From Heterodontus francisci (lineage: Eukaryota), in contig NC_090399.1 in the NCBI RefSeq assembly GCF_036365525.1, forward strand, positions 66,520,862 through 66,584,861: a DNA stretch of 64,000 nucleotides. The letters run 5' to 3'. The translations under genes were made by a program, and so were the position numbers. The notes under the pieces were generated by a model that was not told where the DNA came from, did no database searches, and was given only the letters and a program-made list of their open reading frames with translations. Below, in pieces: positions 1-63,266 of this stretch (position 1 is the stretch's first letter; each line of letters begins with the position of its first letter).

Positions 1-3000
1 GTTCATGCCCAGATGTCTCTCTCTCTCTGGGGTTGGTGTTTTGGGGTTCATGCCCTGATGTCTCTCTCTCTGGGGTTGATGTTTTGGGGTTCATGCCCTG
101 ATGTCTCCCTCTTTGGGGTTGATGTTTTGGGGTTCATGCCCTGATGTCTCTCTTTCATTGGGGTTGATGTTTTGGGGTTCATGCCGATGTCTCTCTCTTT
201 GGGGTTGATGTTTTGGGGTTCATGCCCTGATGTCTCTCTCTCATTGGGGTTGATGTTTTGGGGTTCATGCCGATGTCTCTCTCTTTGGGGTTGATGTTTT
301 GGGGTTCATGCACTGATGTCTCTCTCTCTCTGGGGTTGATGTTTTGGGGTTCATGCCCTGATGTCTCTCTCTCTCTGGGGTTAATGTTTTGGGGTTCATG
401 TCCTGATGTCTCTCTCTCTCTGTGGGGTTGATGTTTTGGGGTTCATGCCCTGATGTCTCTCTCTCTCTCTGGGGTTGATGTTTTGGGGTTCATGCCCTGA
501 TGTCTCTCTCTCACTCTGGGGTTGATGTTTTGGGGTTCATGCCCTGATGTCTCTCGCTGTCTGTGGGGTTGATGTTTTGGGATTCATGCCCTGATGTCTC
601 TCTCTCTCTCTGGGGTTGATGTTTTGGGGTTCATGCCCTGATGTCTCTCTCTCTCTCTGTGGGGTTGATGTTTTGGGGTTCATGCCCTGATGTCTCTCTC
701 TCTGTGGCGTTGATGTTTTGGGGTTCATGCCCTGATGTCTCTGTCTCTGGGGTTGGTGTTTTGGGTTTCATGCCCTGCTGTCTCTCTCTCTGTGGGGTTG
801 ATGTTTTGGGGTTCATGCCCTGATGTCCATCTCTCTCTGCGGTTGGTGTTTTGGGGTTCATGCCCTGATGTCTCTCTCTCTGTGGGGTTGATGTTTTGGG
901 GTTCATGCCCTGATGTCCATCTCTCTCTCTCTGGGGTTCATGTTTTGGGGTTCATGCCCTGATGTCTCTCTCTCTCTGGGGTTGGTGTTTTGGGGTTCAT
1001 GCCCTGATGTCTCTCTCTCTGGGGTTGATGTTTTGGGGTTCATGCCCTGATGTCTCTCTCTTTCTCTTGGGTTGATGTTTTGGGGTTCATGCCCTGATGT
1101 CTCTCTCTCTCTGTGGGGTTGATGTTTTGGGGTTCATGCCCTGATGTCTTTTTCTCTGTGGGGTTGATGTTTTGGGGTTCATGCCCTCATGTCCATCTCG
1201 CTCTCTCTGGGGTTGATGTTTTGGGGTTCATGCCCTGATGTCTCTCTTTGGGGATGATATTTTGGGGTTCATGCCCTGATGTCTCTCTCTCTGTGGGGTT
1301 GATGTTTTGGGGTTCATGCCCTGATGTCTCTCTCTGGGGTTGATGTTTTGGGGTTCATGCCCTGATGTCTCTCTTCGGGGATGATATTTTGGGGTTCATG
1401 CCCTGATGTCTCTGTCTCTGTGGGGTTGATGTTTTGGGGTTCATGCCCTGATGTCCATGTCTCTCTCTCTGGGGTTGATGTTTTGGGGTTCATGCCCTGA
1501 TGTCTCTCTGTCTGGGGTTGATGTTTTGGGGTTCATGCCCTGATGTCTCTCTCTTTGGGGTTGATGTTTTGGGGTTCATGCCCTGATGTCTCTCTCTCTT
1601 TGGGGTTGATGTTTTGGGGTTCATGCCCTGATGTCTTTCTCTGGGGTTGATGTTTTGGGGTTCATGCCCTGATGTCTGTCTTTGGGGATGATATTTTGGG
1701 GTTCATGCCCTGATGTCTCTCTCTCTCTGGGGTTGATGTTTTGGGGTTCATGCCCTGATGTCCATCTCTCTCTCTCTGGGGTTGATGTTTTGGGGTTCAT
1801 GCCCTGATGTCTCTCTCTCTCTGTGGGGTTGATGTTTTGGGGTTCATGCCCTGATGTCCATCTCTCTCTCTCTGGGGTTGATGTTTTGGGGTTCATGCCC
1901 TGATGTCTCTCTCTCATTGGGGTTGATGTTTTGGGGTTCATGCCGATGTCTCTCTCTTTGGGGTTGATGTTTTGGGGTTCATGCACTGATGTCTCTCTCT
2001 CTCTGGGGTTGATGTTTTGGGGTTCATGCCCTGATGTCTCTCTCTCTCTGGGGTTAATGTTTTGGGGTTCATGTCCTGATGTCTCTCTCTCTCTGTGGGG
2101 TTGATGTTTTGGGGTTCATGCCCTGATGTCTCTCTCTCTCTCTGGGGTTGATGTTTTGGGGTTCATGCCCTGATGTCTCTCTCTCACTCTGGGGTTGATG
2201 TTTTGGGGTTCATGCCCTGATGTCTCTCGCTGTCTGTGGGGTTGATGTTTTGGGATTCATGCACTGATGTCTCTCTCTCTCTCTGGGGTTGATGTTTTGG
2301 GGTTCATGCCCTGATGTCTCTCTCTCTCTCTGTGGGGTTGATGTTTTGGGGTTCATGCCCTGATGTCTCTCTCTCTGTGGCGTTGATGTTTTGGGGTTCA
2401 TGCCCTGATGTCTCTGTCTCTGGGGTTGGTGTTTTGGGTTTCATGCCCTGCTGTCTCTCTCTCTGTGGGGTTGATGTTTTGGGGTTCATGCCCTGATGTC
2501 CATCTCTCTCTGCGGTTGGTGTTTTGGGGTTCATGCCCTGATGTCTTTCTCTCTGTGGGGTTGATGTTTTGGGGTTCATGCCCTGATGTCCATCTCTCTC
2601 TCTCTGGGGTTCATGTTTTGGGGTTCATGCCCTGATGTCTCTCTCTCTCTGGGGTTGGTGTTTTGGGGTTCATGCCCTGATGTCTCTCTCTCTGGGGTTG
2701 ATGTTTTGGGGTTCATGCCCTGATGTCTCTCTCTTTCTCTTGGGTTGATGTTTTGGGGTTCATGCCCTGATGTCTCTCTCTCTCTGTGGGGTTGATGTTT
2801 TGGGGTTCATGCCCTGATGTCTTTCTCTCTGTGGGGTTGATGTTTTGGGGTTCATGCCCTCATGTCCATCTCGCTCTCTCTGGGGTTGATGTTTTGGGGT
2901 TCATGCCCTGATGTCTCTCTTTGGGGATGATATTTTGGGGTTCATGCCCTGATGTCTCTCTCTCTCTGGGGTTGATGTTTTGGGGTTCATGCCCTGATGT

Positions 3001-6000
3001 CTCTCTCTGGGGTTGATGTTTTGGGGTTCATGCCCTGATGTCTCTCTTCGGGGATGATATTTTGGGGTTCATGCCCTGATGTCTCTGTCTCTGTGGGGTT
3101 GATGTTTTGGGGTTCATGCCCTGATGTCCATCTCTCTCTCTCTGGGGTTGATGTTTTGGGGTTCATGCCCTGATGTCTCTCTGTCTGGGGTTGATGTTTT
3201 GGGGTTCATGCCCTGATGTCTCTCTCTTTGGGGTTGATGTTTTGGGGTTCATGCCCTGATGTCTCTCTCTCTTTGGGGTTGATGTTTTGGGGTTCATGCC
3301 CTGATGTCTTTCTCTGGGGTTGATGTTTTGGGGTTCATGCCCTGATGTCTCTCTTTGGGGATGATATTTTGGGGTTCATGCCCTGATGTCTCTCTCTCTC
3401 TGGGGTTGATGTTTTGGGGTTCATGCCCTGATGTCCATCTCTCTCTCTCTGGGGTTGATGTTTTGGGGTTCATGCCCTGATGTCTGTCTCTCTCTGTGGG
3501 GTTGATGTTTTGGGGTTCATGCCCTGATGTCCATCTCTCTCTCTCTGGGGTTGATGTTTTGGGGTTCATGCCCTGATGTCTCTCTCTCTCTGTGGGGTTG
3601 ATGTTTTGGGGTTCATGCCCTGATGTCTCTCTCTCTCTCTGGGGTTGATGTTTTGGGGTTCATGCCCTGATGTCTCTCTCTCTGTGGGGTTGATGTTTTG
3701 GGGTTCATGCCCTGATGTCTCTCTCTCTCTCTGGGGTTGATGTTTTGGGGTTCATGCCCTGATGTCTCTCTCTCTCTCTGGGGTTGATGTTTTGGGGTTC
3801 ATGCCCTGATGTCTCTCTCTCTCTGTGGCGTTGATGTTTTGGGGTTCATGCCCTGATGTCTCTGTCTCTGGGGTTGGTGTTTTGGGTTTCATGCCCTGCT
3901 GTCTCTCTCTCTGTGGGGTTGATGTTTTGGGGTTCATGCCCTGATGTCCATCTCTCTCTCTCTGGGGTTCATGTTTTGGGGTTCATGCCCTGATGTCTCT
4001 CTCTCTCTGGGGTTGGTGTTTTGGGGTTCATGCCCTGATGTCTCTCTCTCTGGGGTTGATGTTTTGGGGTTCATGCCCTGATGTCTCTCTCTTTCTGTTG
4101 GGTTGATGTTTTGGGGTTCATGCCCTGATGTCTCTGTCTCTGTGGGGTTGATGTTTTGGGGTTCATGCCCTGATGTCCATCTCTCTCTCTCTGGGGTTGG
4201 TGTTTTGGGGTTCATGCCCTGATGTCTCTCTCTCTGGGGTTGATGTTTTGGGGTTCATGCCCTGATGTCTCTCTCTTTCTCTTGGGTTGATGTTTTGGGG
4301 TTCATGCCCTGATGTCTCTCTCTCTCTGGGGTTGATGTTTTGGGGTTCATGCCCTGATGTCTCTCTCTCTCTGGGGTTGGGGTTTTGGGGTTCATGCCCT
4401 GATGTCTCTCTCTCTCTGGGGTTGATGTTTTGGGGTTCATGCCCTGATGTCTCTCTCTCTCTGCGATTGATGTTTTGCGTTCATGCCCTGATGTCTCTCT
4501 CTCTGGGGTTGATGTTTTGGGGTTCATGCCCTGATGTCTCTCTCTCATTGGGGTTGATGTTTTGGGGTTCATGCCGATGTCTCTCTCTTTGGGGTTGATG
4601 TTTTGGGGTTCATGCACTGATGTCTCTCTCTCTCTGGGGTTGATGTTTTGGGGTTAATGCCCTGATGTCTCTCTCTTTGGGGTTGATGTTTTGGGGTTCA
4701 TGCCCTGATGTCTCTCTCTCTTTGGGGCTGATGTTTTGGGGTTCATGCCCTGATGTCTCTCTCTTTGGTGTTGATGTTTTGGGGTTCGTGCCCTGATGTC
4801 TCTCTCTCTCTGGGGTTGATGTTTTGGGGTTCCTGCCCTGATGTCTCTCTCTCTCTGTGGTTGATATTTTGGGGTTTTTGCCCTGATGTCTCTCTCTCTG
4901 GGGTTGATGTTTTGGGGTTCATGCCCTGATGTCTCTCTCTTTGGGGTTCATGCCCTGATGTCTCTCTCTCTTTGGGGTTGACGTTTTGGGGTTCATGCCC
5001 TGATGTCTCTCTCTCTCTGGGGTTGATGTTTTGGGGTTCATGCCCTGATGTCTCTCTCTTTGGGGTTGATGTTTTGGGGTTCTTGCCCTGATGTCTCTCT
5101 CTCTTTGGGGTTGATGTTTTGGGGTTCATGCCCTGATGTCTCTCTCTTTGGGGTTGATGTTTTGGGGTTCATGCCCTGATGTCTCTCTCTGGGGTTGATG
5201 TTTTGGGGTTCTTGCCCTGATGTCTCTCTCTCTCTCTGGGGTTGATGTTTTGGGGTTCATGCCCTGATGTCCATCTCTCTCTCTCTGGGGTTGATGTTTT
5301 GGGGTTCATGCCCTGATGTCTCTCTCTCTCTCTGGGGTTGATGTTTTGGGGTTCATGCCCTGATGTCTCTCTCTCTGGGGTTGATGTTTTGGGGTTCATG
5401 CCCTGATGTCTCTCTCTCTGTGGGATTGGTGTTTTGGGTTCATGCGCTGATGTCTCTCTCTTTCTCTGGGGTTGATGTTTTGGGGTTCATGCCCTGATGT
5501 CTCTCTCTCTGTGGTGTTGATGTTTTGGGGTTCATGCCCTGATGTCTCTCTCTCTGTGGTGTTGATGTTTTGGGGTTCATGCCCTGATGTCTCTCTCTTT
5601 GGGGTTGATGTTTTGGGGTTCATGCCCTGATGTCTCTCTCTGGGGTTGATGTTTTGGGGTTCTTGCCCTGATGTCTCTCTCTCTCTCTGGGGTTGATGTT
5701 TTGGGGTTCATGCCCTGATGTCCATCTCTCTCTCTCTGGGGTTGATGTTTTGGGGTTTATGCCCTGATGTCTCTCTCTCTCTGTGGGGTTGATGTTTTGG
5801 GGTTCATGCCCTGATGTCCATCTCTCTCTCTCTGGGGTTGATGTTTTGGGGTTCATGCCCTGATGTCTCTCTCTCTCTCTGGGGTTGATGTTTTGGGGTT
5901 CATGCCCTGATGTCTCTCTCTCTGGGGTTGATGTTTTGGGGTTCATGCCCTGATGTCTCTCTCTCTCTGGGATTGGTGTTTTGGGTTCATGCGCTGATGT

Positions 6001-7270
6001 CTCTCTCTTTCTCTGGGGTTGATGTTTTGGGGTTCATGCCCTGATGTCTCTGTCTCTGGGTTTGATGTTTTGGGGTTCATGCCCTGATGTCTCTCTCTCT
6101 GTGGTGTTGATGTTTTGGGGTTCATGCCCTGATGTCTCTCTCTCTGTGGTGTTGATGTTTTGGAGTTCATGCCCTGATGTCTCTCTCTCTGGGGTTGATG
6201 ATTTGGGGTTCATGCCCTGATGTCTCTCTCTCTCTCTGGGGTTGATGTTTTGGGGTTTTTGCCCTGATGTATCTCTCTCTGTGGGGTTGATGTTTTGGGG
6301 TGTTTGCCCTGATGTCTCTCTCTGTGGGGTTGATGTTTTGGGGTTCATGCCCTGAAGTTTCTCTCTGGGGTTGATGTTTTGGGGTTCATGCCCTGATGTC
6401 TCTCTCTATCTCTGGGGTTGATTTTTTCTGGTTCATGCCCTGATGTCTCTCTCTCTCTGGGGTTGATGTTTTGGGGTTCATGCCCTGATGTCTCTCTCTC
6501 TCTGGGGTTGATGTTTTGGGGTTCATGCCCTGAGGTCTCTCTCTGGGGTTGATGTTTTGGGGTTCATGCCCTGATGTCTCTCTCTCTGTGGGGTTGATGT
6601 TTTGGGGTTCATGCCCTGATGTCTCTCTCTCTCTGTGGGGTTGATATTTTGGGGTTCATGCCCTGATGTCTCTCTCTCTCTGGGGTTGATGTTTTGGGGT
6701 TCATGCCCTGATGTCTCTCTCTCTCTGGGGTTGATGTTTTGGGGTTCATGCCCTGAGGTCTCTCTCTGGGGTTGATGTTTTGGGGTTCATGCCCTGATGT
6801 CTCTCTCTCTGTGGGGTTGATGTTTTGGGGTTCATGCCCTGATGTCTCTCTCTCTCTGTTGGGTTGATATTTTGGGGTTCATGCCCTGATGTCTCTCTCT
6901 CTCTGGGGTTGATGTATTGGGGTTCATGCCCTGATGTCTCTCTCTCTCTGTGGGGTTGATATTTTGGGGTTCATGCCCTGATGTCTCTCTCTCTGTGGGG
7001 TTGATGTTTTGGGGTTCATGCCCTGATGTCTCTCTCTCTGTGGGGTTGATGTTTTGGGGTTCATGCCCTGATGTCTCTCTCTCTCTGTGGGGTTGATGTT
7101 TTGGGGTTCATGCCCTGATGCCTCTCTCTCTTTGGGGTTGATGTTTTGAGGTTCATCTCCTGATGTCTCTCTCTGGGGTTGATGTTTTGGGGTTCATGCC
7201 CTGATGTCTCTCTCTCTTTGGGATTGATGTTTTGGGGTTCATGCCCTGATGTCTCTCTCTCTCTCTCTGC
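1..7270. repeat. Intron-1 minisatellite, ~45-bp unit GGGGTTGATGTTTTGGGGTTCATGCCCTGATGT(CT)n, roughly 160 copies, open at the window start
   Basis: Directly visible tandem unit with a variable CT tract. ORF-track pairs 537/2210, 631/2304, 735/2408 and 1621/3294 show a 1673-bp higher-order duplication. Confidence 0.98.
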
Positions 7271-7277
7271 GTTTCAG

Positions 7278-7538
7278 GCTCTCATTCGCTCCGGTTTTTC
7301 TTTACCTCAATGACCCCGATTCCCGGTCTCCCAGATTTTTTTTCTGTCGGTTATGTGGATGAGGCTCAGATCGATTACTACGATAGCAACCTTCAGAAGG
7401 CGACCTTTCGGCAGCGGTGGATGTCGGAGAGTCCGGGTCCTGATTTCTGGCAGGAACAGACACAGAGGCTGCGGATTTGGGAGCAGACTGCAAAGGCCCA
7501 GATTCAGACCCTCATGAAACGGAACAACCAGTCGGCCG
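7278..7538 (+). CDS. MHC class I alpha1 exon: (G)SHSLRFFFTSMTPIPGLPDFFSVGYVDEAQIDYYDSNLQKATFRQRWMSESPGPDFWQEQTQRLRIWEQTAKAQIQTLMKRNNQSA(G)
   Basis: Acceptor (ct)n-gcgtttcag at 7277 and donor GTGAGT at 7539. Contains the GSHSLR start, VGYVD, conserved Trp residues, R84 and the N86-Q-S glycosylation sequon. Confidence 0.96.
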
Positions 7539-7684
7539 GTGAGTCATCCCCCCTCTCGGGGATCAGGGCTTGGAATGGGGCCTCAGACTAGGAGCGGGTG
7601 GGAGTACGTGATCCGGGGTCACGGTGATCCGGGTGGCTCCGCCCACTCCCTCATCACCCCTAACCTCTGGGGTCTCTGTGAACC

Positions 7685-7775
7685 GTGCTCTGATTGGCTG
7701 TGTGTATGTGTGTTTGCCATGGGACCTCTGATTGGCTGTGTGTGTTTGATTGGCAGTGGAGAGAGGGCGGGGTCT
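7685..7775. repeat. Short degenerate CTGATTGGCTGTGTGTGTTTG repeat, left half of a unit that resumes at 9062-9279
   Basis: CTGATTGGCT at 7690-7699 and 7728-7737, TGATTGG at 7747, GGGCGGGG at 7765-7772. The same unit forms the alpha2 acceptor. Confidence 0.7.
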
Positions 7776-7869
7776 GTGTGAGCCAGGCACTGATTTTGTC
7801 AATAAAAACAAAACAAAAAATGTTGTAAATACTCAGGAACTCTGGCAGCATCTGTGGAGAGAGAAGCAG

Positions 7870-7904
7870 AGTTAACATTTCAGGTCAGTGACCCTTCATC
7901 AGAA
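7870..7904 (-). ncRNA. Minimal type I hammerhead ribozyme motif of the Penelope-like terminus (stem I broken by the CR1 insertion)
   Basis: The minus strand reads UU-CUGAUGA-AGGGUCACUGACCU-GAAA-UGUU-AACU: both catalytic boxes intact, with a GGUC/GACC stem II. Confidence 0.6.
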
Positions 7905-8105
7905 ACATAGAAAATCGGAGCAGGAGTAGGCCATTCGGCCCTTCAGCCTGCTTCGCCATTCATGATGATCATGGCTGATCATCGAACTCAGTGATCTGTT
8001 CCTGCTTTTGCCCCATACCCTTTGATCCCTTCAAACCCAAGAGCTTTTTCTAACTCCTTCTTGAAAACGTACAATGTTTTGGCCTCAACTGCTTTCCTTG
8101 GTAGC
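7905..8105 (-). mobile_element. 5'-truncated CR1-type LINE 3' end nested in the Penelope fragment
   Basis: The minus frame gives KAVEAKTLYVFKKELEKALGFEGIKGYG, typical of the CR1 ORF2 C-terminus, followed by a 3' UTR and catagaaa tail. The flanks rejoin as catcagaactggca. Confidence 0.8.
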
Positions 8106-8589
8106 GAACTGGCAGAGCTAGAAATGTGATAGGTTTTAAGCAAGTAAAGTGGGGGTGGGGCAAGAGATAAGAAAAGCAAAGGTGTTGATAGGACAGAGAG
8201 TCACAGAGAATAACTGACCAGAAGGTCATGGAGCAAAGGCAAATGGTCTGTTAATGGTGTGGTAAAAGACAAAGCGTTAGTTCAGAGAAGGTGTTAATTG
8301 ACAGAAAACTGAACAGCCCTGGCCCAAAGCACAAACATGAAAAAAACACAGTGGGCATGCACATGGTAAGAAAAATGAATGATGTAACAGACTAAAATAA
8401 AATAAAAAGAACGAAGAAAAAGGAAAAATACTGAAAATAAATTGGGGGGGGTGGGGGGTGGGGGGTGGTGGTGGGGGGTGGCCTGACATGCTCTGAAATT
8501 ATTAAACTCAATATTCAGTTGCTACAACCTGCCGGACTGAACATTGAGTTTGATCATTTCAGAGCATGACAGGCTCCCCCTTTTCAGCG

Positions 8590-9060
8590 ATGGTAATGCT
8601 TGTGAACATCAGGGGGAAATGGTTAGATATGCTCTTGTTGGAGATGGTCATTGCCTGGCACTTGTGTGCCACTTATCAGCCCAAGCCTGGATATTGTCCA
8701 GGTCTTGCTGCATTTCTACACAGACTGCTTCAGTATCTGAGGAGTCACGAATGGTGCTGAACATTGTGCAATCATCAGTGAACATCCCCACTTCTGGACT
8801 TTATGATTGAAGGAAGGTCATTGATGAAGCAGCTGAAGATGTTTGGGCCCAGGACACTACCCTGAGGATCTCCTGCATTGATGTCCTGGAGCTCAGATGA
8901 TTGACCTCCAACAACCACAACCATCTTCCTTTGTGCTAGGTATGGCTCCAGCCAGCGGTAGGTTTTCTGCCTGATTCCCATTGACTGCAGTTTTGCTGGG
9001 GATGCTTGATGCCGTACTCGGTCAAATGCTGCCTTGATGTCAAGGGCAGTCACTCTCACC
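8590..9060 (-). mobile_element. Non-LTR retrotransposon (CR1/L2 clade) reverse transcriptase fragment, frameshifted
   Basis: ALDIKAAFDRV, AGDPQGSVLGP and FINDL motifs in ORF 8775-9059, continuing in another frame as MFTDDCT...QDLDNIQAWADKW. Confidence 0.88.
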
Positions 9061-9061
9061 T

Positions 9062-9279
9062 CCCGATTGGCTGTCTTTGATTGACATTGCGGGGAGGGTG
9101 GGCTCTCTGGGTCAGGCTGTGTTTGGCTGTCAGTGGAGGATTGTCGGGGTCTCAGTAGGACAAGGTCTGATTGGCTGTGTGGTTGATTGACAGTTTGATT
9201 GGCGGTGGGGGCTCTGACTGGCTATCTGTTTGAACGTGGTGGAGAGGGCTCTGAATGGCTGTGTGTGTTTGATTGACAG
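9062..9279. repeat. Degenerate GATTGGCTGTGTGTTTGATTGACAG repeat whose last copy is the alpha2 acceptor
   Basis: About five diverged copies; the final one reads ctgaatggctgtgtgtgtttgattgacag|GG. Confidence 0.7.
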
Positions 9280-9552
9280 GGATTCACATACTCCAGACAG
9301 TGTACGGCTGTGAGCTGCGGGAAGATGGGAGCACCTGGGGGTTTTATCAAGATGGCTGGGACGGGAAGGATGCCATCGTGTTAGACAAAGAGAACATGAT
9401 GTGGGTCGCAGTGACACCATTCATGGTGCTGACCAAACAGGAGTGGGACAGAGACACTGCCAGGAACCAGCGGTGGAAGGATTACCTGGAGCAGGAGTGC
9501 ATCGCCTGGCTGAATGAATTCCTGAAACTTGGAGAGAACGAACTGAGACCGG
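9280..9552 (+). CDS. MHC class I alpha2 exon: (G)IHILQTVYGCELREDGSTWGFYQDGWDGKDAIVLDKENMMWVAVTPFMVLTKQEWDRDTARNQRWKDYLEQECIAWLNEFLKLGENELRP
   Basis: Acceptor CAG at 9277-9279 and donor GTGAGT at 9553. Contains H93, Q96, YGC101, DGKD, T143, W147, Y159, C164 and W167. Confidence 0.97.
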
Positions 9553-10082: not shown

Positions 10083-13000
10083 ACAGAGGTCTGATCCCCA
10101 GTTTAAAGAGGTATGTAAAATTCCCCGGGGTCAGGAGTCTGATCCCCAGTTTAAAGAGATATGTACCATTCCCTGGGGTCTGGGGTCTATTCCCCAGTTT
10201 AAAGGGATATGTACCATTGTCTGGGGTAAGGGGTCTAATCCTCAGTTTGAAGGGATATGTACCATTCCCTGGGGTCAGGGGTCTATTCCCCAGTTTAAAG
10301 GGATATGTACCATTCCCTGGGGTAAGGGGTCTAATCCCCAGTTTAAAGGGATATGTACCATTCCCTGGGGTAAGGGGTCTAATCCCCAGTTTAAAGGGAT
10401 ATGTACCATTTCCCGAGGTCAGGGATCTAATCCCCAGTTTAAAGGGGTATGTACCGTTTCTTGGGGTCAGGGGACTGATCCCCAGTTTAAAAGGATATGT
10501 ACCGTTCCTTGGGGTCAGGGGACTGATCCCCAGTTTAAAGGGATATATACCGTTCCGTGGGGTCAGGGGTCTGATCCCAAGTTTAAAGGGGTATGTACCA
10601 TTCCTGCGGTCAGGGCTCTGATCCCCAGTTTAAAGGGGTATGTACCATTCCTGGGGTCAGGGGTCTAATCCCCAGTTTAAAGGGATATGTACCGTTCCTT
10701 GGGGTCACGGGACTGATTCCCAGTTTTAAGGGATATGTACCATTCCTTGGGGTCAGGGGTCTGATCCCCAGTTTAAAGGGGTATGTACCATTCCTGAGGT
10801 CAGGGGTCTGATCCCCAGTTCAAGGAGTATGTACCGTTCCTTGGGGTCAGGGGACTGATCCCTGGTTTAAAGGGATATGTACCGTACATTGGGGACAGGG
10901 GACTCATCCCCAGTTTAAAGGGATATGTACCGTTCCTTGGGGTCAGGGGTCTGATCCCAAGTTTAAAGGGGTATATACCGTTCCTGGGGTCAGGGCTCTG
11001 ATCTCCAGTTTAAAGGGGTATGTACCATTCCTGGGGTCAGGGGTCTGATCCCCAATTTAAAGGGATATGTACCATTCCTTGGTGACAGGGGTCCAATCCC
11101 CAGTTTAAAGGGGTATGTACCATTTCCCGAGGTCAGGGGTCTAATCCTCAGTTTAAAGGGATATGTACCATTCCCTGGGGTCAGGGGTCTGATCCCCAGT
11201 TTAAAGGGGTATGTACCATTCCTGGGGTCAGGGGTCTGATCCCCAGTTTAAAGGGGTATGGACCATTCCTGAGGTCAGGGGTCTGATCCCCAGTTTAAAG
11301 GGATATGTACCGATCCTTGGGGTCAGAGGTCGAATCCCCAGTTTAAAGGGATATGTACCATTTCCTGAGGTCAGGGGTCTAATCCGCAGTTTAAAGGGGT
11401 ATGTACCATTCCTGGGGTCAGGTGTCTGATCCCAAATTTAAAGGGGTATGTAACATAGCTGGGGTCAGGGCTCTGATCCCCAGTTTAAAGGGGTATGTAC
11501 CATTCCTGGGGTCAGGGGTCTAATCCCCAGTTTAAAGGGGTATGTACCATTCTTGGGGTCAGGTGTCTGATCCCCAGTTTAAAGGGATATGTAACGGTCC
11601 TCGGGGTCAGGGGACTGATCCCCAGTTTAAAGGGATATGTAACGGTCCTCGGGGTCAGGGGTCTGATCCCCAGTTTAAAGGGGTATGTACCATTCCTGAG
11701 GTCAGGGTAAAGATCCCCAGTTTAAAGGGATATGCACCGTTCCTTGGGGTCAGGGGACGGATCCCCAGTTTAAACGGATATGTACCGTTCCTTGGGGTCA
11801 GGGGTCTTATCCCAAATTTAAAGGGGTATGTACCATTTCTGGGGTCAGGGGTCTGATCCCCAGTTTAAAGGGGTATGTACCATTCCTGGGGTCAGGTCTA
11901 ATCCGCAGTTTAAAGGGGTATGTACCATTCCTGGGGTCAGGGGTCTGATCCCCAGTTTAAAGGGCTATGTACCATTCCTGCGGTCAGGTCTAATCCGCAG
12001 TTTAAAGGGGTCTGTACCATTCTAGAGGTCAGGGGTCTGATCCCCAGTAAAAGGGGTATGTACCATTCCTGGGGTCAGGGGTCTGATCCCCAGTTTAAAG
12101 GGTTATGTACCGTTCCTTGGGGTCAGGGGACTGATTGCCAGTTTAATGGGATCTGTACTGCTCCCGGGGTCAGGGGTCTGATCCCCAGTTTAAAGGGTAT
12201 GTTCCGTTCTTTGGGGTCTGGGTCCGATCGCCAGTTTAAAGGGATATGTACCATTCCCTGGGGTCCGGGGTCTAATCCCTCATTTAAAGGGGTATGTACC
12301 ATTTCCTGGGGTCAGGAATCTAATCCGCAGTTGAAAGGGATATGTACCATTCCCTGGGGTCAGGTGTCTAACCCCAGTTTAAAGGGATATGTACCATTCC
12401 CTGGGGTCAGGGCTCTGATCTCCAGTTTAAAGGGGTATGTGCCATTCCCTGGGGTCAGGGGTCTGATCCCCAGTTTAAAGGGTATGTACCATTCCTGGGG
12501 TCAGGGGTCCGATCTCCAATTTAAAGGGATATGTACCATTCCCTGGGGTCAGGGGTCGAATCCCCAGTTTAAAGGGAAATGTACCGTTCCTTGGGGTCAG
12601 GGGACTGATCCCCAGTTTAAAGGGATATGTACCATTCCCTGGGGTCAGGGGTCGAATCCCCAGTTTAAAGGGATATAGACCGTTCCTTGGGGTCAGGGGT
12701 CTGATCCCCAGTTTAAAGGGGTATGTACCATTCCTGCGGTCAGGGCTCTGATCCCCAGTTTAAAGGGATATGTACCATTCCTTGGGGTCAGGGGACCGAT
12801 CCCCAGTTCAAAGGGATATGTACCGTTCCTTGGGGTCAGGGGACCGATCCCCAGTTCAAAGGGATATGTACCGTTCCTTGGGGGCAGGGGACTGATCCCC
12901 AGTTTAAAAGGATATGTACCGTTCCTTGGGGTCAGGGGTCTGATCCCAAGTTTAAAGGGGTGTGTACTATTCCTGCGGTCAGGGCTCTGAACCCCAGTTT

Positions 13001-16000
13001 AAAGGGGTATGTACCATTCCTGGGGTCAGGGGTCTAATCCTCAGTTTAAAGGGGTATGTACCATTCCTTGGGGTCAGGGGACCGATCCCCAGTTCAAAGG
13101 GATATGTACCGTTCCTTGGGGTCAGGGGACTGATCCCCAGTTTAAAGGGATATGTACCATTCCTGGGGTCAGGGGGCTGATCCCCAGTTTAAAGGGGTAT
13201 GTACCATTCCTGAGGTCAGGGGTCTGATCCCCAGTTTAAAGGAGTATGTACCGTTCCTGGGGTCAGGGGTCTGATCCCCAATTTAAAGGGGTATGTACCA
13301 TTCCTGAGGTCAGGGGAAAGATCCCCAGTTTAAAGGGATATGCACCGTTCCTTGGGGTCAGGGGTCTTATCCCAAATTTAAATGGGGATGTACCATTTCT
13401 GGGGTCAGGGGTCTGATCCCCAGTTTAAAGGGGTATGTACCATTCCTGGGGTCAGGTCTAATCCGCAGTTTAAAGGGGTATGTACCATTCCTGGGGTCAG
13501 GGGTCTGATCCCCAGTTTAAAGGGGTATGTACCATTCCTGCGGTCAGGTCTAATCCGCAGTTTAAAGGGGTCTGTACCATTCTAGAGGTCAGGGGTCTGA
13601 TCCCCAGTTTAAAGGGGTACGTACCATTCCTGGGGTCAGGGGTCTGATCCCCAGTTTAAAGGGTTATGTACCGTTCCTTGGGGTCAGGGGACTGATCCCC
13701 AGTTTAATGGGATCTGTACTTCTCCCGGGGTCAGGGGTCTGATCCCCAGTTTAAAGGGTATGGTCCGTTCTTTGGGGTCTGGGTCCGATCGCCAGTTTAA
13801 AGGGATATGTACCATTCCCTGGGGTCAGGGGTCTAATCCCTCATTTAAAGGGGTATGTACCATTTCCTGGGGTCAGGAATCTAATCCGCAGTTGAAAGGG
13901 ATATGTACCATTCCCTGGGGTCAGGTGTCTAACCCCAGTTTAAAGGGATATGTACCATTCCCCGGGGTCAGGGCTCTGATCTCCAGTTTAAAGGGGTATG
14001 TACCATTCCCTGGGGTCAGGGGTCTGATCCCCAGTTTAAAGGGTATGTACCATTCCTGGGGTCAGGGGTCTGATCTCCAATTTAAAGGGATATGTACCAT
14101 TCCCTGGGGTCAGGGGTCGAATCCCCAGTTTAAAGGGATATGTACCGTTCCTTGGGGTCAGGGGACTGATCCCCAGTTTAAAGGGATATGTACCATTCCC
14201 TGGGGTCAGAGGTCGAATCCCCAGTTTAAAGGGATATAGACCGTTCCTTGGGGTCAGGGGTCTGATCCCCAGTTTAAAGGGGTATGTACCATTCCTGCGG
14301 TCAGGGCTCTGATCCCCAGTTTAAAGGGGTATGTACCATTCCTGGGGTCAGTGGTCTAATCCTCAGTTTAAAGGGGTATGTACCATTCCTTGGGGTCAGG
14401 GGACCGATCCCCAGTTCAAAGCGATATGTACCGTTCCTTGGGGTCAGGGGACTGATCCCCAGTTTAAAGGGATATGTACCATTCCTGGGGTCAGGGGTCT
14501 GATCCCCAGTTTAAAGGGGTATGTACCATTCCTAAGGTCAGGGATCTGATCCCCAGTTTAAAGGAGTATGTACCGTTCCTTGGGGTCAGGGGACTCATCC
14601 CCAGTTTAAAGGGATATGTACCGTTCCTTGGGGTCAGGGGTCTGATCCCAAGTTTAAAGGGTATGTACCATTCCTGGGGTCAGGGGTCTGATCCCCAGTT
14701 TAAAGGGTATGTACCATTCCTGGGGTCAGGGGTCTGATCCCCAATTTAAAGGGATATGTACCGTTCCTGGGGTAAGGGGTCTAATCCCCAGTTTAAAGGG
14801 ATATGTACCATTTCCCGAGGTCAGGGGTCTAATCCTCAGTTTAAAGGGATATGTACCATTCCTGGGGTCAGGGGTCTGATCCCCAGTTTAAAGGGGTATG
14901 TACCATTCCCTGGGGTCAGGGGTCTGATCCCCAGTTTAAAGGGATATGTACCGATCCTTGGGGTCAGGGGTCTAATCCCCAGTTTAAAGGGATATGTACC
15001 ATTTCCTGAGGTCAGAGGTCTAATCCCAAGTTTAAAGGGATATGTACCATTTCCCGAGGTCAGGGGTCTAATCCGCAGTTTAAAGGGGTATGTACCATTC
15101 CTGGGGTCAGTTGTCTGATCCCAAATTTAAAGGAGTATGTACCATTCCTGTGGTCAGGGGTCTAATCCCCAGTTTAAAGGGGTATGTACCATTCTTGGGG
15201 TCAGGGGTCTGATCCCCAGTTTAAAGGGGTATGTACCATTCCTGAGGTCAGGTGTCTGATCCCCAGTTTAAAGGGATATGTAACGTTCCTTGGGGTCAGG
15301 GGACTGATCCCCAGTTTAAAGGGATATGTACCGTTCCTTGGAGTCAGGGGTCTTATCCCAAATTTAAAGGGGTATGTACCATTCCTGGTGTCAGATGTCT
15401 GATCCCCAGTTTAAAGGGATATGTAACGTTCCTTGGGGTCAGGGGACTGATCCCCAGTTTAAAGGGATATGTACCGTTCCTTGGAGTCAGGGGTCTTATC
15501 CCAAATTTAAAGGGGTATGTACCATTTCTGGGGTCAGGGGTCTGATCCCCAGTTTAAAGGGGTATGTACCATTCCTGGGGTCAGGTCTAATCCGCAGTTT
15601 AAAGGGGTATGTACCATTCCTGCGGTCAGGTCTAATCCGCAGTTTAAAGGGATATGTACCATTCCAGACGTCAGGGCTCTGATCCCCAGTTTAAAGGGGT
15701 ATGTTCCATTCCTGGGGTCAGGGGTCTAATCCACAGTTTAAAGGGATATATACCGTTCCTTGGGGTCAGGGGTCTGATCCCAAGTTTAAAGGGTATGTAC
15801 CATTCCTGGGGTCAGGGGTCTGATCCCCAGTTTAAAGGGTATGTACCATTCCTGGGGTCAGGGGTCTGATCCCCAATTTAAAGGGGTATGTACCATTCCT
15901 GAGGTCAGGGGAAAGATCCCCAGTTTAAAGGGATATGCACCGTTCCTTGGGGTCAGGGGACGGATCCCCAGTTTAAAGGGATATGTACCGTTCCTTGGGG

Positions 16001-19000
16001 TCAGGGGTCTTATCCCAAATTTCAAGGGGTATGTACCATTCCTGGGGTCAGGGGTCTGATCCCCAGTTTAAAGGGGTATGTACCATTCCTGGGGTCAGGT
16101 CTAATCCGCAGTTTAAAGGGGTATGTACCATTCCTGGGGTCAGGGGTCTGATCCCCAGTTTAAAGGGGTATGTACCATTCCTGCGGTCAGGTCTAATCCG
16201 CAGTTTAAAGGGGTCTGTACCATTCTAGAGGTCAGGGGTCTGATCCCCAGTTTAAAGGGGTATGTACCATTCCTGGGGTCAGGGGTCTGATCCCCAGTTT
16301 AAAGGGTTATGTACCGTTCCTTGGGGTCAGGGGACTGATCCCCAGTTTAATGGGATCTGTACTGCTCCCGGGGTCAGGGGTCTGATCCCCAGTTTAAAGG
16401 GTATGTTCCGTTCTTTGGGGTCTGGGTCCGATCGCCAGTTTAAAGGGATATGTACCATTCCCTGGGGTCAGGGGTCTAATCCCTCATTTAAAGGGGTATG
16501 TACCATTTCCTGGGTCAGGAATCTAATCCGCAGTTGAAAGGGATATGTACCATTCCCTGGGGTCAGGTGTCTAACCCCAGTTTAAAGGGATATGTACCAT
16601 TCCCTGGGGTCAGGGCTCTGATCTCCAGTTTAAAGGGTTATGTACCATTCCCTGGGGTCAGGGGTCTGATCCCCAGTTTAAAGGGTATGTACCATTCCTG
16701 GGGTCAGGGGTCTGATCTCCAATTTAAAGGGATATGTACCATTCCCTGGGGTCAGGGGTCGAATCCCCAGTTTAAAGGGATATGTACCGTTCCTTGGGGT
16801 CAGGGGACTGATCCCCAGTTTAAAGGGATATGTACCATTCCCTGGGGTCAGGGGTCGAATCCCCAGTTTAAAGGGATATAGACCGTTCCTTGGGGTCAGG
16901 GGTCTGATCCCCAGTTTAAAGGGGTATGTACCATTCCTGCGGTCAGGGCTCTGATCCCCAGTTTAAGGGGTATGTACCATTCCTGGGGTCAGGGGTCTAA
17001 TCCTCAGTTTAAAGGGGTATGTACCATTCCTTGGGGTCAGGGGACCGATCCCCAATTTAAAGGGATATGTACCATTCCTGGTGTAAGGGGTCTAATCCCC
17101 AGTTTAAAGGGATATGTACCATTTCCCGAGGTCAGGGGTCTAATCCTCAGTTTAAAGGGATATGTACCATTCCTGGGGTCAGGGCTCTGATCCCCAGTTT
17201 AAAGGGGTATGTACCATTCCTTGGGGTCAGGGGACCGATCCCCAGTTCAAAGGGATATGTACCGTTCCTTGGGGTCAGGGGACCGATCCCCAGTTCAAAG
17301 GGATATGTACCGTTCCTTGGGGTCAGGGGACTGATCCCCAGTTTAAAGGGATATGTACCATTCCTTGGGGTCAGGGGTCTGATCCCAAGTTTAAAGGGGT
17401 GTGTACTATTCCTGCGGTCAGGGCTCTGATCCCCAGTTTAAAGGGGTATGTACCATTCCTGGGGTCAGGGGTCTAATCCTCAGTTTAAAGGGATATGTAC
17501 CGTTCCTTGGGGTCAGGGGACTGATCCCCAGTTTAAAGGGATATGTACCATTCCTGGGGTCAGGGGGCTGATCCCCAGTTTAAAGGGGTATGTACCATTC
17601 CTGAGGTCAGGGGTCTGATCCCCAGTTTAAAGGAGTCTGTTCCGTTCCTGGGGTCAGGGGTCTGATCCCCAATTTAAAGGGGTATGTACCATTCCTGAGG
17701 TCAGGGGAAAGATCCCCAGTTTAAAGGGATATGCACCGTTCCTTGGGGTCAGGGGTCTTATCCCAAATTTAAATGGGGATGTACCATTTCTGGGGTCAGG
17801 GGTCTGATCCCCAGTTTAAAGGGGTATGTACCATTCCTGGGGTCAGGTCTAATCCGCAGTTTAAAGGGGTATGTACCATTCCTGGGGTCAGGGGTCTGAT
17901 CCCCAGTTTAAAGGGGTATGTACCATTCCTGCGGTCAGGTCTAATCCGCAGTTTAAAGGGGTCTGTACCATTCTAGAGGTCAGGGGTCTGATCCCCAGTT
18001 TAAAGGGGTATGTACCATTCCTGGGGTCAGGGGTCTGATCCCCAGTTTAAAGGGTTATGTACCGTTCCTTGGGGTCAGGGGACTGATCCCCAGTTTAATG
18101 GGATCTGTACTGCTCCCGGGGTCAGGGGTCTGATCCCAGTTTAAAGGGTATGGTCCGTTCTTTGGGGTCTGGGTCCGATCGCCAGTTTAAAGGGATATGT
18201 ACCATTCCCTGGGGTCAGGGGTCTAATCCCTCATTTAAAGGGGTATGTACCATTTCCTGGGGTCAGGAATCTAATCCGCAGTTGAAAGGGATATGTACCA
18301 TTCCCTGGGGTCAGGTGTCTAACCCCAGTTTAAAGGGATATGTACCATTCCCCGGGGTCAGGGCTCTGATCTCCAGTTTAAAGGGGTATGTACCATTCCC
18401 TGGGGTCAGGGGTCTGATCCCCAGTTTAAAGGGTATGTACCATTCCTGGGGTCAGGGGTCTGATCTCCAATTTAAAGGGATATGTACCATTCCCTGGGGT
18501 CAGGGGTCGAATCCCCAGTTTAAAGGGATATGTACCGTTCCTTGGGGTCAGGGGACTGATCCCCAGTTTAAAGGGATATGTACCATTCCCTGGGGTCAGG
18601 GGTCGAATCCCCAGTTTAAAGGGATATAGACCGTTCCTTGGGGTCAGGGGTCTGATCCCCAGTTTAAAGGGGTATGTACCATTCCTGCGGTCAGGGCTCT
18701 GATCCCCAGTTTAAAGGGGTATGTACCATTCCTGGGGTCAGGGGTCGAATCCCCAGTTTAAAGGGATATAGACCGTTCCTTGGGGTCAGGGGACTGATCC
18801 CCAGTTTAAAGGGATATGTACCATTCCTGGGGTCAGGGGTCTGATCCCCAGTTGAAAGGGGTATGTACCATTCCTAAGGTCAGGGGTCTGATCCCCAGTT
18901 TAAAGGAGGATGTACCGTTCCTTGGGGTCAGGGGACTCATCCCCAGTTTAAAGGGATATGTACCGTTCCTTGGGGTCAGGGGTCTGATCCCAAGTTTAAA

Positions 19001-22000
19001 GGGTATGTACCATTCCTGGGGTCAGGGGTCTGATCCCCAGTTTAAAGGGTATGTACCATTCCTGGGGTCAGGGGTCTGATCCCCAATTTAAAGGGATATG
19101 TACCATTCCTGGGGTAAGGGGTCTAATCCCCAGTTTAAAGGGATATGTACCATTTCCCGAGGTCAGGGGTCTAATCCTCAGTTTAAAGGGATATGTACCA
19201 TTCCTGGGGTCAGGGGTCTGATCCCCAGTTTAAAGGGGTATGTACCATTCCCTGGGGTCAGGGGTCTGATCCCCAGTTTAAAGGGATATGTACCGATCCT
19301 TGGGGTCAGGGGTCTAATCCCCAGTTTAAAGGGATATGTACCATTTCCTGAGGTCAGAGGTCTAATCCCCAGTTTAAAGGGATATGTACCATTTCCCGAG
19401 GTCAGGGGTCTAATCCGCAGTTTAAAGGGGTATGTACCATTCCTGGCGTCAGTTGTCTGATCCCAAATTTAAAGGAGTATGTACCATTCCTGTGGTCAGG
19501 GGTCTAATCCCCAGTTTAAAGGGGTATGTACCATTCTTGGGGTCAGGGGTCTGATCCCCAGTTTAAAGGGGTATGTACCATTCCTGAGGTCAGGTGTCTG
19601 ATCCCCAGTTTAAAGGGATATGTAACGTTCCTTGGGGTCAGGGGACTGATCCCCAGTTTAAAGGGATATGTACCGTTCCTTGGAGTCAGGGGTCTTATCC
19701 CAAATTTAAAGGGGTATGTACCATTTCTGGGGTCAGGGGTCTGAACCCCAGTTTAAAGGGGTATGTACCATTCCTGGGGTCAGGTCTAATCCGCAGTTTA
19801 AAGGGGTATGTACCATTCCTGGGGTCAGGGGTCTGATCCCCAGTTTAAAGGGGTATGTCCCATTCCTGCGGTCAGGTCTAATCCGCAGTTTAAAGGGATA
19901 TGTACCATTCCAGACGTCAGGGCTCTGATCCCCAGTTTAAAGGGGTATGTTCCATTCCTGGGGTCAGGGGTCTAATCCACAGTTTAAAGGGATACATACC
20001 GTTCCTTGGGGTCTGGGGTCTGATCCCAAGTTTAAAGGGTATGTACCATTCCTGGGGTCAGGGGTCTGATCCCCAGTTTAAAGGGTATGTACCATTCCTG
20101 GGGTCAGGGGTCTGATCCCCAATTTAAAGGGGTATGTACCATTCCTGAGGTCAGGGGAAAGATCCCCAGTTTAAAGGGATATGCACCGTTCCTTGGGGTC
20201 AGGGGACGGATCCCCAGTTTAAAGGGATATGTACCGTTCCTTGGGGTCAGGGGTCTTATCCCAAATTTCAAGTGGTATGTACCATTCCTAGGGTCAGGGG
20301 TCTGATCCCCAGTTTAAAGGTGTATGTACCATTCCTGGGGTCAGGTCTAATCCGCAGTTTAAAGGGGTATGTACCATTCCTGGGGTCAGGGGTCTGATCC
20401 CCAGTTTAAAGGGGTATGTACCATTCCTGCGGTCAGGTCTAATCCGCAGTTTAAAGGGGTCTGTACCATTCTAGAGGTCAGGGGTCTGATCCCCAGTTTA
20501 AAGGGGTATGTACCATTCCTGGGGTCAGGGGTCTGATCCCCAGTTTAAAGGGTTATGTACCGTTCCTTGGGGTCAGGGGACTGATCCCCAGTTTAATGGG
20601 ATCTGTACTGCTCCCGGGGTCAGGGGTCTGATCCCCAGTTTAAAGGGTATGTTTCGTTCTTTGGGGTCTGGGTCCGATCGCCAGTTTAAAGGGATATGTA
20701 CCATTCCCTGGGGTCAGGGGTCTAATCCCTCATTTAAAGGGGTATGTACCATTCCTGGGGTCAGGGGTCTGATCTCCAATTTAAAGGGATATGTACCGTT
20801 CCCTGGGTTCAGGGGTCGAATCCCCAGTTTAAAGGGATATGTACCGTTCCTTGGGGTCAGGGGACTGATCCCCAGTTTAAAGGGATATGTACCATTCCCT
20901 GGGGTCAGGGGTCGAATCCCCAGTTTAAAGGGATATAGACCGTTCCTTGGGGTCAGGGGTCTGATCCCCAGTTTAAAGGGGTATGTACCATTCCTGCGGT
21001 CAGGGCTCTGATCCCCAGTTTAAAGGGGTATGTACCATTCCTGGGGTCAGGGGTCTAATCCTCAGTTTAAAGGGGTATGTACCATTCCTTGGGGTCAGGG
21101 GACCGATCCCCAATTTAAAGGGATATGTACCATTCCTGGGGTAAGGGGTCTAATCCCCAGTTTAAAGGGATATGTACCATTTCCCGAGGTCAGGGGTCTA
21201 ATCCTCAGTTTAAAGGGATATGTACCATTCCTGGGGTCAGGGGTCTGATCCCCAGTTTAAAGGGGTATGTACCATTCCCTGGGGTCAGGGGTCTGATCCC
21301 CAGTTTAAAGGGATATGTACCGATCCTTGGGGTCAGGGGTCTAATCCCCAGTTTAAAGGGATGTGTACCATTTCCTGAGGTCAGGGGTCTAATCCCCAGT
21401 TTAAAGGGATATGTACCATTTCCTGAGGTCAGGAGTCTGATCCCCAGTTTAAAGGGGTATGTACCTTTCCTGAGGTCAGGTGTCTGATCCCCAGTTTAAA
21501 GGGATATGTAACGTTCCTTGGGGTCAGGGGACTGATCCCCAGTTTAAAGGGATATGTACCGTTCCTTGGGGTCAGGGGTCTTATCCCAAATTTAAAGGGG
21601 TATGTACCATTTCTGGGGTCAGGGGTCTGATCCCCAGTTTAAAGTGGTACGTACCATTCCTGGGGTCAGGTCTACTCCGCAGTTTAAAGGGGTATGTACC
21701 ATTCCTGGGGTCAGGGGTCTGATCCCCAGTTTAAAGTGGTATGTTACATTCCTGCGGTCAGGACTAATCCGCAGTTTAAAGGGATATGTACCATTCCAGA
21801 GGTCAGGGGTCTAATCCCCAGTTTAAAGGGGTATGTACCATTCTTGGGGTCAGGGGTCTGATCCCCAGTTTAAAGGGGTATGTACCATTCCTGAGGTCAG
21901 GTGTCTGATCCCCAGTTTAAAGGGATATGTAACGTTCCTTGGGGTCAGGGGACTGATCCCCAGTTTAAAGGGATATGTACCGTTACTTGGGGTCAGGGGT

Positions 22001-53821: not shown

Positions 53822-54097
53822 TTGCTCCTCATCTGTTTCCATCCGTGGACAAAGTGTCAGCCACTAAACCGACCCAGTTCTCCTGCCTGGTCACGGGCTT
53901 TTATCCTCGCGATATCGAAGTCACCCTCCTGAGAAATGGCAGATCAATGGCAGACACGGAATCCCATGACATCCTGCCCAACCACGATGGCACCTACCAG
54001 CTCCGGAAATGGGCTCAGATCGACCCTAATGATGGAGCCACCTATTCCTGTCAGTATGAGCAGAGTGGAAAAGAAGGAGTGAAGATCCGAGACTGGG
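53822..54097 (+). CDS. MHC class I alpha3 (Ig C1-set) exon: VAPHLFPSVDKVSATKPTQFSCLVTGFYPRDIEVTLLRNGRSMADTESHDILPNHDGTYQLRKWAQIDPNDGATYSCQYEQSGKEGVKIRDW
   Basis: CTGAC branch-like motif, pyrimidine tract and CAG ending at 53821; donor GTAAGA at 54098. Contains CLVTGFYP, LPNHDGTYQ and YSC motifs. Confidence 0.97.
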
Positions 54098-54973: not shown

Positions 54974-55308
54974 ATAGAAAGACCAGGTGCTACTCCTCGA
55001 GCTTGCATTGATGTTCACTGGAGCATTGGAGCAGGCCATGTTGGCATGAGAGCAGGGGGATGATGTTGAAATGACCAGTGACCGGAAGCTCAGGGTCATA
55101 CTTTCGAACTGAGCGGAGGTATTCCGCAAAGCGGTCACCCAGTCTGCGTTTGGTCTCCCCAATGTAGAGGAGACCACATTGTGAGCAGTGAATACAGTAT
55201 ACTACATTGAAAGTACAAGTAAATCACTGCATCACCTGAAAGGAGTGTTTGGGGCCTTGGATATTGAGGAGGGAGGAGGTAAATGGGCAGGTATTACACC
55301 TCCTGCAA
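54974..55308 (-). mobile_element. Inverted partial copy of the Penelope GIY-YIG region
   Basis: The reverse complement aligns by eye with 56450-56792 (ttgcaggaggtgtaatacctgcccatttacc ... ggggagaccaaacgcagactgggtgaccgc). Confidence 0.85.
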
Positions 55309-55329
55309 ACAGGACTGTCCTGGTAGACC

Positions 55330-60911: not shown

Positions 60912-61137
60912 GATCCAGCGGACTAGGAGGGATAGAGAGAACAGCAAAGGAAGACAAAATAGAGAGCAAGTGCAGCAAAAATGAAATATGAATGGAAATT
61001 TGAGAGAATCAAGATGAACAGCTTTTACAGTTCTATCAGAAGAGAAAGGGTAACACAGCCCTGTAAAAATCAATGCAGGAATATTACAATTGAAAATAAG
61101 GAAATGATAGACTTTTTGAATAACTACTTTGTCATCG

Positions 61138-63140: not shown

Positions 63141-63266
63141 ACGGGACATTCCGAGATACTCCAGGATCTCCAGAAGGGACAAATCTGGGTTTGATTGTTG
63201 GAATTGTTGTTGCTGCCGTCGCTGTGATTGCTCTTGTCATCGGTGCTGTTGTGTGGAAGAGGAGAG
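63141..63266 (+). CDS. MHC class I connecting peptide/transmembrane exon: DGTFRDTPGSPEGTNLGLIVGIVVAAVAVIALVIGAVVWKRR
   Basis: Strong acceptor cttcctcattccccccacag, phase 1 giving W-D-G after alpha3. A ~23-residue hydrophobic helix, basic WKRR stop-transfer, and donor GTAGGG at 63267. Too short for the ORF track. Confidence 0.93.

Follow-up and report, generated by a model that had tools for sequence, protein, structure and literature searches.

A real, expressed MHC class I gene, as judged from sequencing contigs, lies in the stretch of DNA analysed here (the window, 64,000 nucleotides of Heterodontus francisci contig NC_090399.1), and it carries with it a testable, unproven ligand hypothesis. 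In this gene, four of the eight residues of the classical anchor set (Y7, Y59, R84, T143, K146, W147, Y159 and Y171) are changed. Based on the sequence, our tentative prediction, to which we give a little less than an even chance, is that the product may be a nonclassical peptide binder of recent origin, to which free peptide termini make no difference and which prefers a basic C-terminal anchor. The same anchor pattern could also come from ordinary drift in a spare gene copy, and much of what follows concerns the evidence that bears on these two readings.

Gene structure and transcription

The features of the window are the following.

1..7264, no strand: 45-bp tandem array that takes up the end of intron 1, with the leader exon upstream of the window
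7278..7538, plus strand: alpha1 exon, with F7 at 7295, F9, F59 at 7445, Q63, R84 and the N86 sequon
9280..9552, plus strand: alpha2 exon, with D116, A123 at 9372, T143, E146 at 9441, W147, Y159, W167, F171 at 9519 and the C101-C164 pair
10084..53778, no strand: 47-bp tandem array, about 890 copies in its main block
53822..54097, plus strand: alpha3 exon, of the UAA-2/dogfish type
63141..63266, plus strand: connecting peptide and transmembrane exon; the cytoplasmic exons lie outside the window, beyond its end

The alpha1, alpha2 and alpha3 exons translate letter for letter as RefSeq XP_067865031.1 (P0001, labelled Heterodontus francisci), one of four RefSeq isoforms of the gene. Splice sites are canonical (AG/GT). 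A 44-kb intron, the greater part of it occupied by the 47-bp array, separates alpha2 from alpha3. All features of an MHC class I heavy chain are present, namely the alpha1/alpha2 platform, a C1-set alpha3 domain, a transmembrane segment, two disulfides and an intact frame. The usual Tyr-bearing cytoplasmic tail is found in isoform X4, and the tail tyrosine is missing from three of the four isoforms. Among the matches listed for the flanks of the window (20 kb upstream, about 19 kb downstream), none corresponds to the leader or cytoplasmic exons. The nearest solved structure, by sequence and by fold, is nurse shark UAA (6LUP). An AF2 model built on a 30-row alignment, which informs on the fold only and not on pocket geometry, has a normal platform and Ig domain (mean pLDDT 73.6) with helices of normal length, and a fold search with this model returned 6LUP as the best hit and MR1 structures next. 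RefSeq names the product MR1-like.

Transcription was followed in contigs from sequencing runs that we presume to be RNA, splicing being read from the contigs themselves. Contigs of organism A match the window exons without mismatch and then diverge from the intron sequence. Contigs in runs X1, X3, X9 and X12 align as far as 9552 and are unlike the intron thereafter. The alpha1 exon is joined to the leader and alpha2 exons in record 4 of contig X14. In organism B, which we infer to be a congeneric shark, a single 1553-nt contig has leader, alpha1 and alpha2 spliced together where predicted. Cover of the alpha1 exon is absent in runs X9 and X10, an absence without evidential weight. The organism-B gene differs from the window gene at 9 of 534 bases (about 98% identity), none of them in the four anchor codons; five sites are in alpha1 and four in alpha2, the latter count ascribing an extra fifth mismatch to the alignment entering the intron and including one site from a loose contig end. 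The five alpha1 differences are the same in all three organism-B samples with exon cover (four runs), a small sample whose contigs lose rare variants. Seven amino acids differ between A and B and none is groove-facing (p ~0.15-0.2), the groove positions being those of a 43-site list. A low-polymorphism, nonclassical role is predicted for this gene.

Genomic place and ancestry

The chromosome of the gene (C29) bears more than 30 class I exon sets. The window gene sits at 66.53 Mb, amid UAA-type loci at 66.35, 66.72 and 67.03 Mb, with TAP-like exons at 65.15, 65.32 and 65.65 Mb (0.9-1.4 Mb away) and a proteasome subunit exon at 65.90 Mb (0.6 Mb away). The linkage to PSMB8/9 and TAP by which classical class Ia is recognised is thus present, the proteasome exon being scored as a subunit and not specifically as PSMB8/9. 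PMC10751288 refers to unpublished "MHC-Ia-like genes" whose number around the shark Ia gene varies among species, and the window gene fits this category.

Its closest relationships differ along its length. In the alpha3 tree the window gene falls in a clade (99/93) with UAA-2, dogfish AAN77874 and genes of Pristiophorus and Heptranchias, apart from UBA and from the neighbouring UAA loci, whose alpha3 is just ~50% identical to its own. For the transmembrane exon and the intron-4 flank, matches are confined to UAA-2-type loci. For nurse shark UAA-2 the identity amounts to 74% in alpha3, 75% in the transmembrane exon and 75% over 357 nt of the intron-4 flank, and among the intact paralogues compared UAA-2 has the smallest synonymous distance to both alpha1 and alpha2 of the window gene. 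The placement of the platform domains is less uniform: alpha1 is sister to the 66.72 Mb locus in the protein tree (98/85) and joins UAA-2 weakly in the DNA tree (84/85), alpha2 groups with Triakis D116/S123 sequences (98/78), and the protein trees join neither domain to UAA-2. Such conflicting sisters are usual for recombining class I domains. Taken together, the trees show alpha1 and alpha2 to derive, at the level of sequence, from the UAA/UAA-2 pool, with an exact sister that differs between protein and DNA trees.

The first-pass annotation had proposed that the molecule stands outside the described shark lineages, and this was borne out for UBA, UCA/UEA, UDA, UFA and UGA by our trees and by the labelled rows (UAA, UAA-2, UBA, UCA, UDA, UFA, UGA and UHA) in the PMC10751288 supplement. 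The window gene is none of these because its alpha3, transmembrane exon and intron-4 flank are of UAA-2 type and its alpha1 and alpha2 belong to the UAA/UAA-2 pool. It does not cluster with the UBA sequence Gici AAC60347 in the per-domain trees. UDA, a lineage defined by orthology to Gici/Leer UDA with the anchors retained, corresponds to a locus at C29:50.08 Mb (L053/L025) that matches, by eye, the UDA row of the supplement (PMC10751288) and is ~40% identical to the window gene. UCA/UEA, UFA and UGA, which are marked by divergent hydrophobic grooves and alpha3 types of their own, were excluded by eye against the labelled rows of the same source, together with the trees and groove hydropathy. 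UAA-2 itself was also considered and rejected: the alpha3 and transmembrane types match, but the conserved UAA-2 groove with all its anchors is absent. UEA, for its part, is reportedly defined by a hydrophobic groove, a definition attributed to Almeida in 2021.

The horn shark genome holds about ten near-identical UAA-2 copies, some at C29:57-63 Mb and others on unplaced contigs, and the UAA-2 row in the supplement of PMC10751288 matches the 57-63 Mb cluster by eye. In contrast to the window gene, UAA-2 has none of Y7, Y59, K146 or Y171 changed, and between horn shark and catshark its groove hardly varies; the window gene is ~60% identical to it in alpha1/alpha2 and lies 4 Mb away, among UAA loci. 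The comparison with classical shark UAA (nurse shark 6LUP/AF220063, the horn shark AAC60349 type, the Triakis AAB97336-53 series and dogfish AAN77874) runs as follows. Fold, exon plan, location in the class Ia region and most groove chemistry are common to both, with alpha2 on the side of Triakis and alpha3 on that of the dogfish, whereas the window gene has half of its terminal anchors changed and, in the few samples at hand, no allelic variation was seen.

Two further relatives deserve mention. A copy at C29:66.83 Mb, 0.3 Mb from the window gene, is 97% identical in alpha1+alpha2 and has the same F7, F59, E146 and F171, but it is a pseudogene, with a TGA in alpha2 and neither a matching alpha3 nor a matching transmembrane exon. 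The catshark protein XP_038672229 (P0015), with a UAA-2-type alpha3 and S123, joined the window alpha2 in a quick tree only (89) and was not accepted as an orthologue, since this grouping is absent from the careful tree. Shallow searches (26, 72 and 112 candidates, or 50% representatives) returned no shark protein with F7/F59/F171 from outside Heterodontus.

Groove residues and selection on the anchors

Residues are numbered by alignment to nurse shark UAA 6LUP, in agreement with the HLA-A2 row in the supplement of PMC10751288. By translation and this alignment, the residue list of the first-pass annotation is correct throughout: F7 (TTT 7295), F59 (TTC 7445), F171 (TTC 9519), Q63, D116, A123 (GCC 9372) and E146 (GAG 9441) are present, and R84, T143, W147, Y159, W167, both disulfides, H3/D29, H93/D119, Q96 and N86 are retained. 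The special status given to these changes holds for only some of them. Q63 falls in the normal D/E/Q set according to PMC8236899, and it also occurs in 41 of 192 homologues (fetched proteins spanning both domains, with the four isoforms of the gene itself removed and other isoforms left uncollapsed). Position 123 is F in 135 of these 192 and is usually F, not Y, outside mammals, and D116 with a small residue at 123 (S) is already found in the Triakis class I proteins P0002, P0052 and P0053. These three features being ordinary in sharks, the distinctive set is F7, F59, F171 and E146, each one base away from the codon in UAA/UAA-2 genes of the same genome. Likewise, the residues behind the proposed acidic, enlarged F pocket are there, but they are in part inherited from an old alpha2 allelic type.

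Eight tyrosines are conserved across 16 reference shark and ray class I proteins; the window gene has Phe at four of these sites (7, 9, 59 and 171), which all lie at the N-terminal end, and retains Tyr at 27, 36, 99 and 159. PMC2193201 describes Tyr7, Tyr171 and, via water, Tyr59 as the set that binds the free amine of the peptide, which supports the earlier statement that the tyrosines lost are those bonding the amine, with Y159 kept. At the other end, K146 acts as an F-pocket lid that lifts for C-extended peptides, according to PMC7590165. Groove net charge is -1, vs +1 to +4 in the UAA/UAA-2 loci of the same genome. Changes at other invariant sites include W139F, P46F and E166A.

A larger share of the anchors than of the remaining invariant sites has changed (4 of 8 vs 8 of 67; Fisher p=0.02, or 0.057 with the strictest threshold), and in an intact, spliced gene this agrees with the first description of a nonclassical-looking molecule on an intact scaffold. 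If codons changed neutrally, Phe at all three sites would be improbable (p 0.0006-0.005), so the fold was under selection when those changes were fixed. That the triple Phe proves selection for a special ligand, as had been suggested, does not follow. Phe is the top non-Tyr state at positions 7, 59 and 171 (13/37, 35%; 18/47, 38%; and 37/51, 73%, among the 192 homologues), and as the commonest replacement it leads one to expect F/F/F in ~10% of genes that change all three tyrosines; it was observed in two of nine. Moreover, five UBA loci of the same genome have lost 3-6 of the 8 anchors with 8-23 of the 67 other sites changed, and this equal bias implies that such loss is generic among class Ib genes. 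Finally, the A and B orthologues have a dN/dS of 0.96-1.17 (7N/2S), for which an omega of 0.2 is rejected (p 0.02-0.03) and an omega of 0.5 is not.

Alternatively, the gene may be a redundant class Ia-like duplicate on which selection has relaxed. It would still fold, be transcribed and bind ordinary peptides more weakly, with no new ligand, having accumulated the most conservative changes open to it, from Tyr to Phe. We regard this as somewhat unlikely, while noting that several observations favour it besides the default nature of Phe and the orthologue dN/dS of about 1: the private changes of the window copy are 5N/0S, dN/dS along the branch is 0.93 for alpha1+alpha2 (CI 0.51-2.03), and the sister copy 0.3 Mb off is already a pseudogene. 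In HLA, Y171F reduces binding and does not abolish it, according to PMC4364491, and the number of MHC-Ia-like genes near UAA differs among species (PMC10751288). Against relaxed drift, the gene still has an intact frame, intact splice sites and both disulfides with a branch dS of ~0.2, the window copy has only 5 private changes vs 14 in the 66.83 Mb pseudogene (p=0.03), the groove is the same in both organisms, and Y159 was spared. On the branch of the gene, alpha1 has a groove dN of 0.38 with a non-groove (framework) dN of just 0.056 and a dS of 0.175; alpha2 has a dN/dS of 1.10 (CI 0.53-3.55) with a non-groove dN of 0.245, and alpha3 a dN/dS of 0.40 (95% CI 0.17-1.08). Elevated groove dN is normal in any descendant of a classical allele. 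Our data show that selection maintained the fold, and that selection on the terminus-reading groups was released or reversed; adaptation and tolerance cannot be separated on these data.

Putative ligands and known parallels

For the young nonclassical peptide binder that we favour, the following model can be drawn. The product would pair with beta2m and hold a peptide through the remaining backbone contacts, Y159, T143, W147 and R84; given these contacts and the polar character of the groove, a peptide is probably its ligand. Its A pocket (L5, F7, F59, W167 and F171) would be a small apolar cup, with W167 still forming a wall, able to accept an acetyl-like group or the small P1 side chain of an N-extended peptide, and not NH3+. 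Loss of the hydroxyls and of K146 would erase the advantage of free termini, so that blocked or extended ligands would become competitive. In the F pocket, D116, A123 and E146 would favour an Arg/Lys anchor and permit a C-terminal overhang; D116 goes with an Arg/Lys anchor in HLA-A3 and B27. There are precedents in classical molecules, which take N-acetyl peptides about tenfold less efficiently, with the acetyl probably in the A pocket (PMC2193201), and which accommodate N-extended peptides when the P1 side chain is small and rotates into the A pocket (PMC7590165).

The initial analogy with mouse H2-M3, a receptor for bacterial or mitochondrial N-formyl peptides, is very unlikely to extend to the ligand. 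Both molecules are nonclassical with an altered A pocket and have F171, and in the window gene the amine-binding hydroxyls are gone, which would remove the preference for NH3+. As described in PMC2193201, however, M3 depends, besides F171, on W167L and on His9, which contacts the formyl oxygen. The window gene has W167 and F9, together with F7 and F59, so that no formyl-binding donor is evident in it, and its origin is unrelated to that of M3.

A non-peptide ligand had also been envisaged, and groove hydropathy speaks against a hydrophobic one. At -0.23, this value lies within the range of classical-type references, vs 1.08 for a divergent UBA at 46.49 Mb, and the groove carries R66, Q77, D116, E146, R152, R155 and E163. 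A presenter of lipids or small metabolites akin to UFA/UGA/CD1 or to MR1 would draw on the additional aromatic residues at the A end, on the RefSeq name and on the second rank of MR1 in the fold search. We consider it highly unlikely, also in view of trees that put the gene among UAA/UAA-2 and apart from UFA-, UGA- and UEA-like loci. In addition, an Ala of alpha1 aligns with K43 of MR1, the residue for its Schiff-base ligand (PDB 4LCW is titled K43A).

The loss of terminus-specific contacts at both ends, the bulky W70, Y99, Y114 and W156 that line the mid-groove and the tail tyrosine missing from most isoforms would all suit an empty or ligand-independent class I-like molecule, for instance an NK-receptor ligand, whose groove need not hold peptide. 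The probability of this reading is low: Y159, T143, W147, R84, G26 and W167 are all retained, helix lengths are normal in the predicted model, and W70 and W156 are also found in P0003 and P0054, which retain most or all anchors.

To return to the predicted peptide binder, if the ligand prediction is true the gene would offer a naturally occurring case of three Tyr-to-Phe replacements in the most conserved site of MHC class I, and just a few point changes would separate it from a classical shark protein whose structure is solved (6LUP). Class I would then be seen to be retunable toward the display of N-acetylated or overhanging peptides, and the unnamed "MHC-Ia-like" genes beside shark UAA would gain a first function. 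An A pocket without hydroxyls (F7/F59/F171, W167 and Y159 being retained) would also differ from the solutions of H2-M3 and HLA-F. If drift is the explanation instead, this is another young class Ib copy of a kind numerous in sharks; young nonclassical genes of class I that have lost anchors are frequent there according to PMC12562908. Our literature search, in which most subscription journals and the two main shark class Ib papers were outside the scope, found no published description of the gene or of the F7/F59/F171 combination.

The triple Phe does occur elsewhere among vertebrates. The lungfish protein XP_043939240 (P0107) has F7, F59 and F171 and keeps Y159, R84, T143, W147 and W167, but unlike the window gene it retains K146 and F123. 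With just 38% identity overall, we infer that the shared triple arose by convergence. F7/F59/F171 is also found in a more eroded platypus gene, and the lungfish and platypus triples may have converged on a pocket design or may follow from how often Tyr changes to Phe in general. That bullhead sharks evolved, from the classical pool, a dedicated presenter of N-blocked, for example acetylated, or end-overhanging peptides, and lungfish independently the same pocket, as a recurrent class Ib design, is in our opinion unlikely. The fish Z lineage offers a partial parallel: Y171F alone is its defining change, most other anchors are kept and polymorphism is low (PMC4364491). Z is, however, ancient and undetected in sharks, and typical Z retains Y7 and Y59; zebrafish ZJA has F7/Y59/F171.

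Groove residues beyond sharks

The combination F7/F59/F171, which leaves the A pocket of the class I groove free of hydroxyls, is common to the gene under study (XP_067865031), a lungfish protein (P0107, XP_043939240) and a platypus protein (P0129, cluster of XP_028910655). Because lungfish P0107 retains R84, T143, K146, W147, Y159 and W167, it represents the cleaner test of such a pocket. E146 was present in 7 of the 192 homologues covering alpha1 and alpha2 (the gene's own four isoforms excluded). Among its carriers are the ray class I proteins P0056, P0061 and P0064, one of which also has F7.

Class I and TAP-like loci on the same chromosome

The class I and TAP-like matches lie on the chromosome carrying the gene (C29), with further copies on other contigs:

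C29:66833282-66836358, truncated pseudogene sister of the gene (L002, L032, L097)
C29:66.35 Mb (L043/L014), 66.72 Mb (L042/L013) and 67.03 Mb (L056/L015), three UAA-type loci
C29:65.15, 65.32 and 65.65 Mb, three TAP-like nucleotide-binding exons
C29:57.4-62.8 Mb and contigs C815, C1290 and C1655, about 10 copies of the UAA-2 lineage (L003-L012, L033-L041, L063-L072)

In the sister copy, alpha2 is interrupted by a TGA, and a search for an alpha3 or TM match found none. On the other strand, some 1.5 kb upstream of this copy, lies a class I leader exon, which suggests local rearrangement.

The UAA-type loci are almost alike in alpha3. A divergent 'SHWYRYF' alpha1 with F59 is found in the 67.03 Mb locus, and the 66.72 Mb locus carries Q84. 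As three TAP-like exons are one beyond the TAP1/TAP2 pair, one TAP gene may be duplicated.

The label 'UAA-2' comes from the PMC10751288 supplement, and a literature search under that name found no paper on the lineage. Its groove, in which every anchor is intact, hardly varies between horn shark, catsharks, bamboo shark and nurse shark. The horn shark copies are near-identical to one another and far apart.

Intronic repeats

The gene is spliced despite introns full of satellite arrays. Some stretches resemble LINE/SINE elements in that they contain ORF fragments and have a high repeat depth. Window positions are:

1-7264, satellite array, 45 bp unit, at least 161 copies
10084-53778, satellite array, 47 bp unit, main block of about 890 copies
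7830-9100, 55300-56850 and 60400-61140, intronic LINE/SINE retroelement-like fragments
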